Sequence record: SRR31156797_4184
Length of the DNA stretch: 44,532 nucleotides
Reading direction: 5' to 3' (one strand)
Shown here: positions 30,125 to 44,532 of the stretch, one piece after another
Numbering within the stretch: position 1 is the first letter of the stretch
Layout of the letters: every line of letters starts with the position of its first letter
Made by a program: the position numbers and the translations under genes
Notes under the pieces: generated by a model
Seen by the model: only the letters and a program-made list of their open reading frames with translations
The model's database searches: none
Told to the model about the DNA's origin: nothing

Positions 30125-31030
30125 ATGCAAAAAATCAAAACCTTGCTTGTTGAAGATGAGAAAATTGCATTGATCACCCTGAAATCACTTCTCGAAAAAC
30201 ACTTTTCAGAAATCGAAGTGGTAGGTTCCGCGAGCACAGTTTCGGGGAGCATCCAAAAAATCAGGGAATTAAAGCCCGACCTTGTCTTTCTTGATATATC
30301 ACTTCCTGATGGCGAGGGTTTTGAAGTGTTGAAAGATTTTCAAACCAAAACTTTCGAAACCATCTTCACTACTGCCCACGAAAGGTATGCCCTGAAAGCT
30401 TTCGATTTTTTTGCCATTCATTACCTGGTAAAACCCGTTACCCTGGAACGGTTGAAAGATGCCATCGAACGATACCATGCAGTAAGAAAGGTTGAAGAAG
30501 AAGAGCAAAAAGTACTGGCAGAAAGTAAACAGGATTTAACTGCCTTGATCAGTCAGGGCGAAAACCATCGCCTGGAGTTTAAATCATCTTTGCGTTGGGA
30601 TTATCGGGAAAACCGTGCCAACAAAAAACTTGAAGAGGTCATCATGAAATCCATTGCGGCGTTTAACAATGCCAAAGGTGGCGTACTGTTTATTGGTGTG
30701 GATGATGACGGCAATACCCTTGGATTGGAAAAGGATTATGCTACGATGAAAAAACCGGATAAAGACCATTTCGAATTACACCTCCGAAACTTAATTCACG
30801 ACAATTACAGTGTGGCATACGCATCAAAATTCCTGAATATCAGTTTTCCCAGCATCAATGGCAAAGAAGTTTGCATGATCGAAATTCAAAAAGGAGATGA
30901 ACCGCTTTATACCACTGTAACCAATAAAGGCGGGGCTAAGGTGGAAAAGTTTTTTGTGCGCTCGGGCAATACTTCGCAGGAACTGGTGAAACCCAGCCGG
31001 ATTATGAATTATATGAAAGTGCGGTTTTAA
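30125..31030 (+). CDS. Response regulator: LytR/AlgR-type receiver fused to a Schlafen/AlbA_2 domain
   Basis: REC with E10-D11, D57 (VFLDISLP), T83 and K103. C-terminal GENHRLEFKSSLRWD...IAAFNNAKGGVLFIGVDDDG...FFVRSGNTS. Confidence 0.88.
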   Translation: MQKIKTLLVEDEKIALITLKSLLEKHFSEIEVVGSASTVSGSIQKIRELKPDLVFLDISLPDGEGFEVLKDFQTKTFETIFTTAHERYALKAFDFFAIHYLVKPVTLERLKDAIERYHAVRKVEEEEQKVLAESKQDLTALISQGENHRLEFKSSLRWDYRENRANKKLEEVIMKSIAAFNNAKGGVLFIGVDDDGNTLGLEKDYATMKKPDKDHFELHLRNLIHDNYSVAYASKFLNISFPSINGKEVCMIEIQKGDEPLYTTVTNKGGAKVEKFFVRSGNTSQELVKPSRIMNYMKVRF

Positions 31031-39864: not shown

Positions 39865-42270
39865 ATGTGGAAATCGAAAAGCGTGATGTCATTGGCTATT
39901 TTGCTAATGGCATCGATAAGCATATATGCCCAATCGGGGCGAATTGAGGGGCGGGTGTTCGATTCGAAAAACAACGAGCCTTTGCCTTTTACCAATATCC
40001 TCATTTTCGGGACCAATATCGGAACCACCTCAGACCTGGATGGCAATTTCATTTTCACAGGTCTCGAACCGGGGTTTACCAAACTTGTTGCCACTTCAGT
40101 AGGTTATGAAAAATATGTCTCGGAAGATTTTCTGGTAACTAACGCCAAAACAATTTTTATCGAGCTACCGATGACTGAAACAAGTGTGAATCTTGAAGAG
40201 GTGGTTGTCCGGGCTTCGCCTTTTGCACGCGACCAGGAAAGTCCGGTTTCGCTAAGGCGCTTGAATATTTCTGAAATCGAGCGTAATCCGGGAGCTAACC
40301 GGGATATTTCAAAAGTAATACAATCGCTGCCCGGAGTGGCTTCAACCCCGGCTCAGCGTAATGATGTAATTGTGCGGGGGGGTGGGCCCAGCGAAAATTC
40401 CTTTTTCCTGGAAGGTGTGGAGATTCCAACCATCAATCACTTTGCTACACAGGGAGCGTCAGGTGGCCCGGTTGGAATCATCAATGTGGATTTTATCCGT
40501 GAGGTGAATTTTTATTCCGGAGCTTTTCCGGCCAAACGGGGAAATGCACTCAGCTCTGTAATCGATTTCCGGATGATTGAGCCCAACAAGGACAAATGGT
40601 CTTATCGTGCCACAGTTGGTGCAACAGATTTGGGTTTTACCGCTAATGGTCCGGTGACCGAAAACTCAGGATTGATTTTTTCTGTGAGACGATCCTATTT
40701 ACAGTTTTTATTTGATGTGCTGGGATTACCATTTTTACCCACCTATAACGATCTGCAGTTCAAGTATAAGTGGAACATCAATAAAAAAAACCAGCTCACA
40801 TTTATCGGGCTGGGAGCTATCGACGACAATGTTTTAAACACCGGCATTGAAGATCCGGATGCCGAACAACAATATATCCTGGGCTATTTACCGGAAAACA
40901 AGCAACGGAGCTACACGGTTGGTGCGGTTTATAAACACTTTTCTAAAAATGGCTTTCACCAATTGGTACTCAGTAGGAATGCCCTGAACAACAAGGCCAT
41001 TAAATATTTGGATAACATCGAAACGGAGGATCGAAAAACCTTTGATTACAATTCCACCGAAACTGAAAATAAACTCAGGTATGAATACAGTGGTAGTATG
41101 AATGGCTGGAAATATGATTACGGAGCCGGATTGCAGCTCTCAAATTTCACGGATAATTCTTACCAAAAGCAGTTTATTCAGGGTGATGTAATCGAATTCA
41201 ACAGGAGTACGAACCTGGATTTATTGAGTTGGAGTGCTTTTGGCCAGGTGAGCAGGGCAATTCTTAAAGAACGGCTTACACTTTCATTGGGTATTCGCAT
41301 GGATGCCAATGATTATTCATCTACCATGTCGAATATGTTCGATCAGCTTTCACCACGATTTTCACTTTCGTATGCACTCACCGAAAAATGGTTTCTCAAT
41401 GCCAATACCGGGAAATATTACCAGCGTCCGCCCTACACAACGCTTGGCTATACCGATAATACCGGAGCTTTTGTAAATAAACAAAACGGACTGAAGTACA
41501 TCGGTGTAGATCACTATGTGGCAGGTATTGAACACAGGCCTGATGAACAATCCAAAATAAGCATTGAGGGTTTTTATAAGTTTTATTACGACTATCCTTT
41601 CTCTGTTCTCGACTCGGTGAGTATTGCCAGTAAAGGGGCTGATTTTGGTGTGTTTGGCAACGAAGAGGTCGTTTCCACAGATAAAGGTCAGGCGTATGGT
41701 TTTGAGGTTTATGCCAGGGATACTGACTTCTTTGGGTTTAATACCATATTGTCGTACACGTTTGTACGCAGTAAGTTCGAAGATAAAAATGGCGAGTATA
41801 TCCCGGCGGCCTGGGACAACAAACATTTGCTGAATCTCACCATTTTGCGGAAGTTAAAAAAGAACTGGAATGTAGGTGGTAAATGGCGCTATGTTGGTGG
41901 TACACCCTACACGCCTTTCGATCCTGTAAAATCAAGCTATGTGCAGGCTTGGGATGTGCAGGGCGGCCCATACCTGAATTATGATGAGTTTAACACCCTC
42001 AGGCTCTCGCCATTTCATCAACTTGATGTGCGGGTGGATAAGCAGTATTTCTTCGATAAATGGTCGCTGATGGTTTATGTGGATATCCAAAACCTGTACA
42101 ATTTCCAGTCGGAAAGTGCCCCGATTTATATCCGCGAACTCGATCCACAGGGTAATCCTGTTATCGTTAATCCGGATGCGCCACCGGCAGAGCAACGATA
42201 CCAGCTCGAAGAACTGCAAACCAATTCGGGAACTGTACTGCCTACAATTGGCATCATGGTTGAGTTTTGA
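39865..42270 (+). CDS. TonB-dependent receptor with N-terminal carboxypeptidase-like domain
   Basis: Signal peptide; GRVFD..NEPLPFTNI; LEEVVV; plug LPGV...VRGGGPSEN; GAFPAKRGNALSSV; terminal VEF. Confidence 0.92.
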   Translation: MWKSKSVMSLAILLMASISIYAQSGRIEGRVFDSKNNEPLPFTNILIFGTNIGTTSDLDGNFIFTGLEPGFTKLVATSVGYEKYVSEDFLVTNAKTIFIELPMTETSVNLEEVVVRASPFARDQESPVSLRRLNISEIERNPGANRDISKVIQSLPGVASTPAQRNDVIVRGGGPSENSFFLEGVEIPTINHFATQGASGGPVGIINVDFIREVNFYSGAFPAKRGNALSSVIDFRMIEPNKDKWSYRATVGATDLGFTANGPVTENSGLIFSVRRSYLQFLFDVLGLPFLPTYNDLQFKYKWNINKKNQLTFIGLGAIDDNVLNTGIEDPDAEQQYILGYLPENKQRSYTVGAVYKHFSKNGFHQLVLSRNALNNKAIKYLDNIETEDRKTFDYNSTETENKLRYEYSGSMNGWKYDYGAGLQLSNFTDNSYQKQFIQGDVIEFNRSTNLDLLSWSAFGQVSRAILKERLTLSLGIRMDANDYSSTMSNMFDQLSPRFSLSYALTEKWFLNANTGKYYQRPPYTTLGYTDNTGAFVNKQNGLKYIGVDHYVAGIEHRPDEQSKISIEGFYKFYYDYPFSVLDSVSIASKGADFGVFGNEEVVSTDKGQAYGFEVYARDTDFFGFNTILSYTFVRSKFEDKNGEYIPAAWDNKHLLNLTILRKLKKNWNVGGKWRYVGGTPYTPFDPVKSSYVQAWDVQGGPYLNYDEFNTLRLSPFHQLDVRVDKQYFFDKWSLMVYVDIQNLYNFQSESAPIYIRELDPQGNPVIVNPDAPPAEQRYQLEELQTNSGTVLPTIGIMVEF

Positions 42271-42301: not shown

Positions 42302-43048
42302 ATGGGGAAAATAAACTATTTCGGATCAGCCATAATTTTTATAATCATTCATGTTTTTGGTTTTCAACAAGCTTCGTCACAAAGTAAAACTCCGGAAGTT
42401 ATCCGCACCAATATGGGTGGTTCCGGGCAAAAAATAGTGCTGACCGTAAATGCAGGAAAAGCGCACAATCATCCCATGATGGCCGCGTGGCTGGAGGATA
42501 TGGACGGGAATTTCATGCAAACCATTTATGTAAATGAATCTGTTGCCAAAGGGTATTTTAATTATACCGTTAAAAATGGAGGAAAGTGGGAACCCGGTGA
42601 GGCCGTGAGGCCGGCTTCATTACCGGTTTGGGCACACAGCAGGGGAGTCTCCTCAGGTGACGGGCATTATATGCCGACAAATGAAAATCCTGTTCCGGAT
42701 GCTTTTACATCAGCTACCCCCGAGGCAGATTTTGCGGTTTACAGCAAATCTGATAAACCGCTGAACGGTAAACACAAAATGTTTTTTGAGATTAACCAGT
42801 CGTGGGACTGGAATGATTTCTGGACCAACAGTAAATATCCTGATGATGAAAATTACAAAACTTCATCACAACCCTCCATCATTTATGTTGCTGAAATTGA
42901 TTTTGACAATCCTGAGGAGGAATATATCCTGCAACCATATGGCCACGGGCATTATTCAGGCATAGATGGCAAGATTTATCCTGACCTTTCAACGATTACA
43001 ACAGCACTTAGAATCGTGGATAAAGTAACCGTTTCCATAGAAAGGTGA
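42302..43048 (+). CDS. Exported protein, DUF2271-like
   Basis: Signal peptide; HPMMAAWLED.DGNF.QTIYV, LPVWAH, PDAFTSATP, FEIN motifs. Confidence 0.6.
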   Translation: MGKINYFGSAIIFIIIHVFGFQQASSQSKTPEVIRTNMGGSGQKIVLTVNAGKAHNHPMMAAWLEDMDGNFMQTIYVNESVAKGYFNYTVKNGGKWEPGEAVRPASLPVWAHSRGVSSGDGHYMPTNENPVPDAFTSATPEADFAVYSKSDKPLNGKHKMFFEINQSWDWNDFWTNSKYPDDENYKTSSQPSIIYVAEIDFDNPEEEYILQPYGHGHYSGIDGKIYPDLSTITTALRIVDKVTVSIER

Positions 43049-43092
43049 AAGAGTAGATATAACTTTTTTATGGCTTATTGCTTTAGACACAC

Positions 43093-43125
43093 AAAAAAAT
43101 CTCCCATGCAAAACCACAGGAGATT
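43093..43125 (-). terminator. Probable intrinsic terminator after the YceI gene
   Basis: aatctcc...ggagatt stem followed on - by a T run. Confidence 0.6.
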
Positions 43126-43164
43126 GAGGATATATGTTTAGAAATGAGAAGTCGTTAAAATGAT

Positions 43165-43713
43165 TTACAACGGTTTTAGGTTCACATCAACCGTTACTTC
43201 AACTTCTTTTGCAATGTTATTGATCACTGTTTTTGGAATTTTAATATCGTAGTCGGCTACGGTTACCATGAATTTAGAGGTTCCATGTATTACATCACTT
43301 TTCACCTCAAAAGTCCCTGACTCAGTTATATCTTTGGTAACACCATGGATCGTTAACTTTCCTTTAATTGTAGTCTCGTATTTTCCTGATTTTGAAAAAT
43401 CAATGTCATCCAGATTTTCAACTTTCCCGACAAACATCGCATTGGGATACTTATGTGATTCCAGGTAATTTTCGTTGAAATGCTCCTGCATCAGGGCTTT
43501 TTCAAATTTAAAAGATTTGATCAGCACCTTAAATACAAAATCACCGGATTCTGTGTCCAGGGCTGCATTTACCTGGTTGTTGTGCGCTTCGATGTCCTCC
43601 ACTGGTGTGGATGAAAAAAAGCTGATACTGCCATTTTTGGTAATGTACTTTTGGGCTATGGCCGAAGTACTGATTAAAAACACTGCGATCAAAAAGCTGA
43701 TTTTTATTTTCAT
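43165..43713 (-). CDS. YceI-family lipid/isoprenoid-binding protein
   Basis: ISFFS..P.EDIEA, F.FEKALMQEHFNENYLES.KYP, GKLTIHGVTK, DYDIKIP. Confidence 0.9.
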   Translation of the reverse strand: MKIKISFLIAVFLISTSAIAQKYITKNGSISFFSSTPVEDIEAHNNQVNAALDTESGDFVFKVLIKSFKFEKALMQEHFNENYLESHKYPNAMFVGKVENLDDIDFSKSGKYETTIKGKLTIHGVTKDITESGTFEVKSDVIHGTSKFMVTVADYDIKIPKTVINNIAKEVEVTVDVNLKPL

Positions 43714-43752
43714 TATAGCTGTTATTTAATAAGTTAGCATTCATTTGTTGAT

Positions 43753-44187
43753 TTATTTTACGATTGAACCACTTTCAATGATTACGTCACTTCCGTTATA
43801 TCCCGGACAGAACCCTTTCAGGGTAATTTCTTTCGATCTCGGATGAGCAAGTAATTTTGTTGCATGCTTTTCAAGCATGGTCACACGGATTCCCTCTGCA
43901 CCGAACATGCCCTGTTCAAAAGCGAAAACACCAATCACCAGTGAGTCGGTTTCTTCGATGTTGGTGAGGTTTCCGGTGATTTCGAGTACCTTACCGGTGT
44001 ATTTCTCGCTTGCCCTTTCCGTGTTTGATCTGAATTCATTAAACAGGGCTTTTGCCTGTACACTAAAATCAGGGTCAGCTTTTTCGTAATCTGTGTGTGA
44101 CTTGTTGTAGATAAAAGTGTATCCCACCCAGGCACCTATAGCTCCTAGTATTACAAGCACAATCAAAATTTTTTTCCAGTTTTTCAT
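43753..44187 (-). CDS. Membrane-anchored OB-fold protein (tRNA_anti-like)
   Basis: MKNWKKILIV.. TM anchor; YNKSH, LFNEF..N...A..KYTGKVLEITG, ITLKGFCPG. Start refined to ATG 44187. Confidence 0.75.
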   Translation of the reverse strand: MKNWKKILIVLVILGAIGAWVGYTFIYNKSHTDYEKADPDFSVQAKALFNEFRSNTERASEKYTGKVLEITGNLTNIEETDSLVIGVFAFEQGMFGAEGIRVTMLEKHATKLLAHPRSKEITLKGFCPGYNGSDVIIESGSIVK

Positions 44188-44328
44188 TGGTTTGATTCTT
44201 AAATGAGCAACAATATTAATCTGATATACCGATGTAAACACAACAGGAAGTGCCAGACAGGTAAAAACCCATGCTGAATGGGGAGATTTTAATTTGGGTG
44301 AGTTTTTTTGTTGAATTACAGAAAATGT

Positions 44329-44336
44329 TATTTTTG
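44329..44336 (+). promoter_or_regulatory. -7 element of the tRNA promoter
   Basis: TATTTTTG followed by catccgc; TTTG at 44307-44310. Confidence 0.65.
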
Positions 44337-44357
44337 CATCCGCTTTTTGAAAATCAT

Positions 44358-44474
44358 GGGGCATTAGCTCAGTTGGTGCCGAAAAACAGAAGCTATGCTT
44401 CATAATTTTTCGAGCATCCTCGAAAATTCAGGAAAATCACAGATTTTCTAATTTTCGGGACTAGAGCGTTTGAC
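44358..44474 (+). pseudogene. Duplicated 5' half of tRNA-Ala interrupted in the D-loop by an 84-nt structured insertion
   Basis: ggggcattagctcagttgg (44358-44376) + insert (44377-44460) + ctagagcgtttgac (44461-44474). Joining the two outer parts gives exactly the first 33 nt of the tRNA at 44498. No T-arm or 3' acceptor strand follows. Confidence 0.85.
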
Positions 44475-44482
44475 CCGTAAAC

Positions 44483-44490
44483 AGTTCTTT
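44483..44490 (+). promoter_or_regulatory. boxA-like antitermination motif in the tRNA leader
   Basis: AGTTCTTT, 7 nt upstream of the tRNA 5' end. Confidence 0.45.
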
Positions 44491-44497
44491 AAAATTT

Positions 44498-44532
44498 GGG
44501 GCATTAGCTCAGTTGGCTAGAGCGTTTGACTG
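44498..44532 (+). tRNA. tRNA-Ala, probably anticodon GGC (5' part; cut by the window edge)
   Basis: GGGGCAT-TA-GCTC-AGTTGGCTA-GAGC-G-TTTGA-CT-G: acceptor 5' strand with G3, paired D-stem GCTC/GAGC, anticodon starting with G. The 3' half is not visible. Confidence 0.8.

Follow-up and report, generated by a model that had tools for sequence, protein, structure and literature searches.

A bulged-hairpin doublet in a partial tRNA-Ala copy of a Bacteroidales genome: a probable mobile repeat within a proposed, renewing tRNA array

The window (the whole stretch of 44,532 nucleotides analysed here) is placed in the Bacteroidales by its own proteins and its nearest genomes, from searches over the order of genome G005, and its right end (44307..44532, plus strand) carries an interrupted copy of the 5' part of a tRNA-Ala gene followed by the beginning of an uninterrupted one. 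Upstream of both is a putative Bacteroidota-type promoter (44307..44336), with TTTG as its -33 element (44307-44310) and TAnnTTTG as its -7 element (44329-44336); the call follows the Bacteroidota consensus, and the 18-nt spacing is slightly shorter than the usual 19-21 nt. The -7 motif occurs at chance frequency in the window (47 occurrences vs 44.85 expected), and lies at most 90 nt upstream in 69 of 75 relic-free tRNA-Ala(GGC) genes. The interrupted copy, termed the relic below, begins at 44358 and the tRNA itself at 44498, 140 bp further on. Its first part (44358..44376, plus strand) corresponds to tRNA-Ala nt 1-19, is identical to 44498-44516 at 19 of 19 positions, and covers the 5' strands of the acceptor and of the D-stem and the D-loop to G18-G19; its second part (44461..44474, plus strand; 14 of 14 identical) corresponds to nt 20-33 and stops at the 5' edge of the anticodon loop (nt 33), a breakpoint found also in the sister genomes G325 and G326. 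The putative stem-loop at the end of the relic has a weak 5-bp stem. Between the two parts lies an 84-nt insert (44377-44460) whose flanks read G|C without duplication. It consists of two hairpins, both on the plus strand: unit 1 (44377..44416; folding z -3.99), with a bulged A near its foot and the apical triloop C-TAT-G, and its inverted homologue unit 2 (44417..44460; z -4.93), with a bulged T and the apical triloop C-ACA-G. An earlier sequence-only reading had described a perfect upstream copy of the first 33 nt of the tRNA, split directly after the D-loop GG by an insert lacking a target duplication, and both descriptions hold. No second copy of the doublet was found elsewhere in the 44.5-kb window.

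A 23-nt spacer (44475..44497, plus strand) separates the relic from the tRNA and contains the motif AGTTC, its GTTC at 44484, 14 nt before the tRNA. What had been read as a boxA-like motif is this leader motif of the family, found also ahead of relic-free tRNA-Ala genes; a reading of it as a T-loop remnant was dropped for the window, and in other relics (for example L002 and L094) GTTC does continue the tRNA sequence. The first 35 nt of the uninterrupted tRNA-Ala(GGC) (44498..44532, plus strand) give a 3'-cut, sub-threshold match to Rfam RF00005 (21.3 bits, E 0.042), and ARAGORN calls no tRNA in the window because only these 35 nt lie inside it. That this tRNA is Ala(GGC) and intact we infer from the sister genomes; at the counterpart locus in G326 (L504) ARAGORN calls tRNA-Ala(ggc).

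Divergent from the tRNA lies a tRNA_anti-like OB-fold gene (PF12869; 43753-44187, minus strand). None of 30 homologue loci in other genomes had a tRNA upstream, so that the adjacency looks incidental, and for the same reason, together with the end of the G324 contig at this gene, synteny through PF12869 yielded no empty-site orthologue. Elsewhere in the window are a 248-aa secreted-looking protein without a Pfam match (42302-43048, plus strand), an adjoining ORF labelled TonB-dependent-receptor-like by inspection (39865-42270), and a response-regulator-like N-terminus apparently fused, again by inspection, to an AlbA/Schlafen-like C-terminal domain (30125-31030, plus strand).

A single contig of sequencing run X1 (depth 380.7) covers 42500-44527 with zero differences and no joint that skips the insert; X1 is possibly the source sample and so is not independent evidence. 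Run X2 matches the window over only 33 nt of the insert and, upstream, 169 nt, and was left aside. Since the X1 contig is unbroken and the same layout occurs in dozens of other assemblies, among them megabase-size contigs (L010, L025, L051, L063 and L087), misassembly at the locus is unlikely.

The relatives of the window place the relic within a repeated arrangement. In NAD kinase, G324 is 93% and both G325 and G326 are 79% identical to the window. Six relic-free relatives show a promoter, a leader and a single tRNA-Ala, and in the relic-free loci L396-L399 (4 of 4) the leader carries AGTTC near -15 and has ATCAT as its last letters. The relic of the window follows ATCAT and therefore holds the ancestral position of the tRNA, and AGTTC stands ahead of the intact copy. 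A 5-sequence alignment with two relic-free relatives in it shows no variation in the AGTTC columns, and across the order the motif is not enriched in the leader (8 of 75, a control stretch giving 7 of 75). In G325 and G326 the AGTTC leader is part of the repeated unit. The G326 locus begins with promoter and leader; a relic that holds two doublets and stops at nt 33 follows, then a second leader, the intact tRNA-Ala(GGC), a GIY-YIG gene (PF01541, 91 aa) and a 3' relic with an insert in the T-loop; G325 has two relic units before the tRNA-Ala, and then the same GIY-YIG gene.

The relics follow the tRNA of their own genome. Although the window, G325 and G326 have one breakpoint in common, the tRNA variants in each relic are those of the genome in which it lies. 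Nucleotides 1-19 equal that tRNA in 11 of 11 relics, vs a mean of 2.4 mismatches to the tRNAs of other genomes, the comparison covering the 11 of 12 tRNA-Ala relics that parsed. Among 36 upstream relics, identity to the intact copy ends mostly at nt 24-40 (two values of 19 are parsing errors). The match to the genome's own tRNA implies either a recent origin of the relics or continuing homogenisation of the array, and suggests that the tRNA-Ala(GGC) locus may undergo array turnover. An unbiased survey covered 75 tRNA-Ala(GGC) loci in 251 Bacteroidales genomes; five were flagged, of which one was a real neighbouring tRNA and four were relics (two of them already among the matches of the GTDB scan described below).

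One could ask of these data whether the relic and its doublet, instead of being neutral debris, are maintained by selection, either because at the DNA level they act as a decoy or a protected site for the tRNA-targeting nuclease, or as a means of changing tRNA copy number by recombination. Consistent with this, the window, G325 and G326 have the breakpoint and the insertion site in common at 79% NAD-kinase identity; the relic label coincides with one side of a branch (support 88; 11 of 500 shuffles as low); and nt 1-7 of the 36 upstream relics are identical to the intact copy in 35, mismatches appearing after the insert. Ordinary homogenisation by unequal crossover, however, explains the same data, relics are absent from 71 of the 75 surveyed loci, and in a NAD-kinase tree of 31 rows the four relic rows are scattered (four changes vs a shuffled mean of 3.8). 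We give selection a small probability, the largest among the alternatives to the mobile-repeat reading set out below.

The doublet recurs in tRNA genes of many kinds. A scan of GTDB for hairpins starting directly after the D-loop GG returned 101 stretches, sorted by regular expression into 45 doublets, 27 single hairpins (two pairs of these loci overlap) and 29 others, which include chance matches and variants. The tRNAs that carry D-loop doublets represent 12 or more anticodons and belong almost entirely to Bacteroidota, with a few in Patescibacteria. An uninterrupted copy of the tRNA stands beside 42 of the 45, the other three being cut by contig ends; since intact copies adjoin the doublets, a doublet in a tRNA gene would seem to be tolerated only in a spare copy. 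Some tRNA loci with doublets or other inserts are elaborate. In L010 (JAXGYS010000003.1; locus positions 1501-1940), tRNA-Ile(GAT) and tRNA-Ala(TGC), which typically stand together in the rRNA spacer, enclose three relics of tRNA-Ala(TGC) in tandem, all with inserts; L054, L062 and L071 are arranged similarly. L129 (G002:C3:2868500-2871800) has three tandem 494-bp units behind an intact tRNA-Phe, each composed of tRNA-Phe-derived sequence, a GIY-YIG gene and a doublet. L132 (G001:C1:2997500-3001000) has a tRNA-Ala(GGC) with one relic upstream and three full-length copies downstream, the latter with doublets in both D-loop and T-loop in mutually opposite orientation.

Beyond tRNA genes, the doublet is a dispersed repeat of strongly uneven abundance. 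In the 23 genomes of the window's family, strand-matches (most copies being counted on both strands) number 120 in G309, 116 in G325, 157 in G326 and one in G084; none were found in the other 19, and none with a reversed-pattern control. Many BLAST matches in G325 and G326 span query positions 1278-1361, which are exactly 44377-44460, an independent delimitation of the element. No strict doublet match occurs in G324, the nearest genome to the window, against more than 100 in each of its sisters G325 and G326; G324 holds one long single unit near a tRNA-Pro/GIY-YIG locus (L486). A loose single-hairpin pattern was too unspecific for use, and a family search around G088 led to just three genomes. 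A target-blind metagenome scan returned at least 123 stretches, with 113 clean-ended sites, 111 of them with flanks. Among the matches listed, junctions are purine|pyrimidine at 69 of the 111 sites and G|C, as in the window, at 36; no target duplication is seen at 81 of 111, vs 88.4 expected from shuffled flanks, and duplications of 6-7 nt occur at two sites. The ORFs adjacent to the listed doublets are mostly housekeeping genes. Doublets stand in frame in long ORFs at about position 900 of L143, L163, L201 and L197 (66, 57, 60 and 69 nt), where they add 19-23 residues to GatB, a family-4 glycosyltransferase region, a Mur ligase region and an unknown protein. At L134 (about 260-300) a doublet lies inside an SRM-like palindrome, at L176 and L418 doublets lie inside long GC-rich inverted repeats, and heptamer tracts of low complexity hold many others, some of them next to 23S_rRNA_IVP four-helix-bundle genes (L166, L175). 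In viral contigs the D-loop pattern had no match and the doublet pattern had one, which lacks the family's ends.

These sites bear on a second alternative, an element specific for the tRNA D-loop, which the sequence-only reading had offered as its first option. For it speak the 45 of 101 GTDB matches that are doublets after the D-loop GG in tRNAs of so many anticodons, and the 14 of 111 target-blind sites that are tRNA-derived among the matches listed (12 rejoin to a tRNA and two match on one side); this is far above the share of tRNA genes in a genome, and the bias to tRNA is therefore real. The GTDB pattern, however, itself required the D-loop. At 97 of the 111 listed sites there was no match to a 180-gene tRNA library (which some relics may escape), and the listed insertions in tRNAs are at positions 10, 15, 17, 19 (three times), 21, 24 and 55, so that position 19 accounts for three of 111 sites, beside other tRNA positions, intergenic tracts and ORFs. 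D-loop specificity is contradicted as an exclusive rule, and we regard it as improbable.

The fold of the doublet was analysed in 43 distinct D-loop members, that of the window included. The insert of the window folds with a z of -6.63 (none of 200 shuffles as good). Two folds had been drawn for it, two tandem hairpins and a four-way, cloverleaf-like junction; both can indeed be drawn, and only the first stood. In the window the two-hairpin fold is the minimum (-30.0 vs -27.1 kcal/mol for the forced cloverleaf; pairing probabilities 0.992 and 0.007), and it has more stacked pairs than the cloverleaf in 43 of 43 members. Position 2 of unit 1 covaries without exception with its two-hairpin partner (28 C-G, 15 G-C). 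In 42 loci, and with 2000 shuffles that ignore kinship, the first four variable pairs of the two-hairpin fold are Watson-Crick in 95.8% and 98.8% of cells vs 41.8% and 60.3% when shuffled, whereas pairing in the cloverleaf is 51-52% vs 43-44%, slightly above the null (43 and 10 of 2000 shuffles). The search for further D-loop hairpins thus found many copies, and covariation among them supports the two-hairpin fold and not the cloverleaf. Unit 2 is unit 1 inverted, and the bulges mirror each other. Apical loops of the form C-TNY-G close 22 of 43 first units vs four of 43 second units, and C-RNA-G loops none vs 14. Triloops of the C-G(N)A-G type form stable DNA mini-hairpins; with one such triloop per strand, recognition as single-stranded DNA is a better fit than a role as RNA. 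In asymmetric doublets the G-C unit comes first in 15 of 15; only eight of these are visible to the pattern in reverse, and the orientation bias (eight vs none) is therefore only suggestive.

The same data address a functional structured leader RNA or tRNA mimic. Such a role would agree with the location between the putative promoter and the tRNA, with the folding of 44358-44498 (z -5.28), and with the clustering of total doublet length at about 85-92 nt. Against it, the cloverleaf is unsupported, RNA tetraloops are nearly absent (one GNRA and one UUCG in all doublets), and Rfam gives no match except the tRNA. The same element also lies at unrelated sites in both orientations, its distribution is patchy, with such a leader in just four of the 75 surveyed tRNA-Ala(GGC) genes, and the 3' ends of the relics vary; the tRNA mimic of the sequence-only reading thus finds no backing here, and we rate this alternative marginally below D-loop specificity. 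Least probable is an unusual tRNA intron or a misassembly, to which the precise insertion without duplication, the contig end inside the tRNA and the possible identity of X1, the sole run with full cover, with the source sample might point, since excision would leave only nt 1-33 (which, with no Rfam intron match, also agrees with the earlier rejection of a group I intron), an uninterrupted copy adjoins 42 of 45 doublets, the X1 and megabase-contig layouts are as described above, and the duplicated pieces (19 and 14 nt) are both shorter than a 31-mer.

We therefore favour, and consider probable, the reading of the doublet as a non-autonomous, DNA-level mobile repeat lodged in a spare tRNA copy, within a small, renewing tandem tRNA-Ala(GGC) array. 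By comparison of sequences, a head-to-head doublet of bulged hairpins would insert without target duplication, mostly at purine|pyrimidine junctions, at many genomic sites. A unit of leader plus tRNA would have been duplicated (the layout is seen in G325 and G326, and the order of events is our reconstruction); the promoter-proximal copy would have received the doublet behind G19 and been truncated after nt 33, while the downstream copy stayed functional. Recombination would keep renewing the array and so hold each relic to the tRNA sequence of its own genome. In transcripts the relic probably forms a 5' leader that RNase P removes, and it would serve no function of its own. In sum, the insert looks like a small selfish repeat and not an intron, and is probably not a regulatory RNA. 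A palindromic mini-element beside a retained intact tRNA was one of the two options first offered for this locus, and it agrees with the dispersed hairpin family, the intactness of the tRNA being judged from the sister genomes.

The enzyme behind the array and the movement of doublets is a further question, on which the GIY-YIG genes bear. They lie near nine of 123 target-blind loci (among the matches listed) and 19 of 101 D-loop loci, vs none of 60 housekeeping and none of 39 Y1 loci, by a profile HMM trained partly on the same doublet loci; with Pfam alone, 144 ORFs from 80 of at least 123 loci include three GIY-YIG and no Y1_Tnp genes. In the survey a GIY-YIG gene stood at one of four relic loci and two of 71 relic-free loci. 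The window, whose end falls inside the tRNA, shows no GIY-YIG gene. Genomes of the family carry GIY-YIG in 23 of 23 cases and Y1_Tnp in 22 of 23, and since both enzymes are nearly universal, their presence does not pick the mover. The tRNA-Ala type of GIY-YIG occurs in G325, G326 and G084 and weakly in G321; in G309, whose genome is incomplete but rich in doublets, the search found none; the only doublet of G084 lies inside the GIY-YIG unit, which makes the G084 match circular. At 39 Y1 loci of the family (part of all Y1 loci, from incomplete genomes), isolated single-hairpin matches were seen in six, and no more. The nearest solved relatives of the 91-aa protein are the UPF0213 proteins 1ZG2 and 1YWL, and NCBIfam has no family for the tRNA-linked GIY-YIG. 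These tRNA-linked proteins (about 80-90 aa) stand apart from a branch of about 100 aa (branch length 2.36, support 100), which a C-terminal motif marks as putatively Ssn-like. A subgroup of nine rows (support 93) lies by tRNA-Ala(GGC) genes or relics (L019, L022, L031, L034, L037, L038, L059 and L101) in Flavobacteriales, Cytophagales and other Bacteroidota, where an 18-nt single hairpin replaces 6 nt of the D-loop, and suggests tRNA-specific nuclease lineages.

From gene neighbourhoods, the putative link of GIY-YIG to tRNA arrays is better supported than its equally putative link to doublet movement. By analogy with SegB, the small single-domain GIY-YIG encoded right behind the tRNA in the sister genomes has, in our estimate, an even chance of driving the array; that it also moves the doublets is a more tentative proposal, beside which stand a Y1/RAYT enzyme or host repair. 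More speculative still, and in our view rather unlikely, is that the tRNA-linked GIY-YIG proteins of about 80-90 aa form a mobilising class that would nick single-stranded DNA in folded form where a purine meets a pyrimidine, enlarge tandem arrays at host tRNA genes and paste tag-less doublets genome-wide without duplication, with the relics as protected or decoy sites.

Several known systems resemble the doublet in part. REP dimers, BIME-1 and REPINs, as far as the accessible text of their descriptions goes, are GTAG- and CGTC-tagged repeats (PMC3733652, PMC3116915, PMC6006769). Like them, the doublets are short bulged hairpins in many dispersed, mostly extragenic copies (116-157 strand-matches in three of 23 genomes), are paired in inverted order (REP partners lie 0-2 bp apart in some of the families described there; doublet bulges and loops are mirrored), are occasionally inserted in frame in genes, and differ strongly in copy number between relatives. 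Unlike the REPs of those texts, the doublet has no GTAG, GTGG or CGTC tag at its foot: the flanks of its 111 listed sites vary with a purine|pyrimidine bias only, and the flank in the window is tRNA sequence. Its units fold separately instead of as one long hairpin, it often lies in tRNA relics, and the RAYT gene of the REP systems has no Y1_Tnp counterpart among the doublet-adjacent ORFs counted above.

Ssn nucleases with NTS/SRM repeats, for which the available text proposes an IS-like origin and a role in repeat expansion (PMC11893778), share with the present loci small single-domain GIY-YIG genes by GC-rich hairpins with a similar stem core. The SRM pattern published there (with a 5' GTC tag), by contrast, has no match in the window and one in 132 loci, and that text mentions neither tRNA nor Bacteroidota. 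The nucleases of the Ssn system are of the cd10448 clade and cut single-stranded DNA at a specific site next to the hairpin; the tRNA-linked proteins lie far from the putative Ssn-like branch named above. SegB of phages T4 and T6 is described as a free-standing GIY-YIG nuclease encoded next to tRNA genes, which cuts within them and drives tandem amplification of the segment by recombination (PMC13096335; see also PMC2330249). Similarly, a GIY-YIG gene lies within 1 kb of tRNA genes in G325 and G326 and tandem tRNA arrays are seen, the cutting role of the Bacteroidales protein being putative. Unlike SegB, which is phage-encoded and for which the same text describes no hairpin inserts (PMC13096335), the Bacteroidales protein has 91 aa and the doublet and array loci are bacterial contigs, the D-loop pattern being absent from the viral contigs scanned.

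The insert differs from group I and BHB tRNA introns in that its removal does not restore a full tRNA, and from classical DDE-mobilised MITEs in the lack of target-site duplication beyond the null, as given above for the listed sites. An integrase att duplication consists of the 3' part of a tRNA downstream, with an integrase; the duplicate visible in the window, whose end falls inside the tRNA, is the 5' part and lies upstream, in line with the doubt of the sequence-only reading about a typical att duplication. Cyanobacterial small dispersed repeats reportedly place small palindromic units in genes and RNA genes. Rickettsia palindromic elements, in the consulted text, are small palindromic units in frame in genes and in RNA genes (PMC3733652). 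Both are set apart from the doublet, going by these descriptions, by other sequence and other hosts.

In a literature of largely open-access main texts, we found no description of the doublet repeat or of insert-bearing tRNA relics in Bacteroidota; the supplements of PMC11893778, PMC3733652 and PMC6006769 could include one. The tag-less hairpin-doublet repeat has thus apparently not been described so far, and what is new here is the long doublet class, its fold, the target-blind insertion spectrum, the on/off genome-wide expansion, and a relic that tracks its own tRNA. The locus in the window is itself one ordinary instance of this family. The family accounts for pieces of tRNA-like sequence in environmental Bacteroidales that mislead annotation and interrupt assemblies at tRNA genes, as well as for short odd peptide inserts in housekeeping proteins. 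How short palindromic repeats reach new sites is a long-standing open question, the REP-RAYT link being mostly one of association and cleavage, and the doublet family offers a clean test case, with exact ends, no tag, no target duplication, copy numbers that are on or off among relatives, known empty sites (the intact tRNA by each relic) and a 91-aa candidate enzyme. If the proposal of a mobilising GIY-YIG class is true, a non-HUH nuclease would here drive a REP-like system, in Bacteroidota and beyond.
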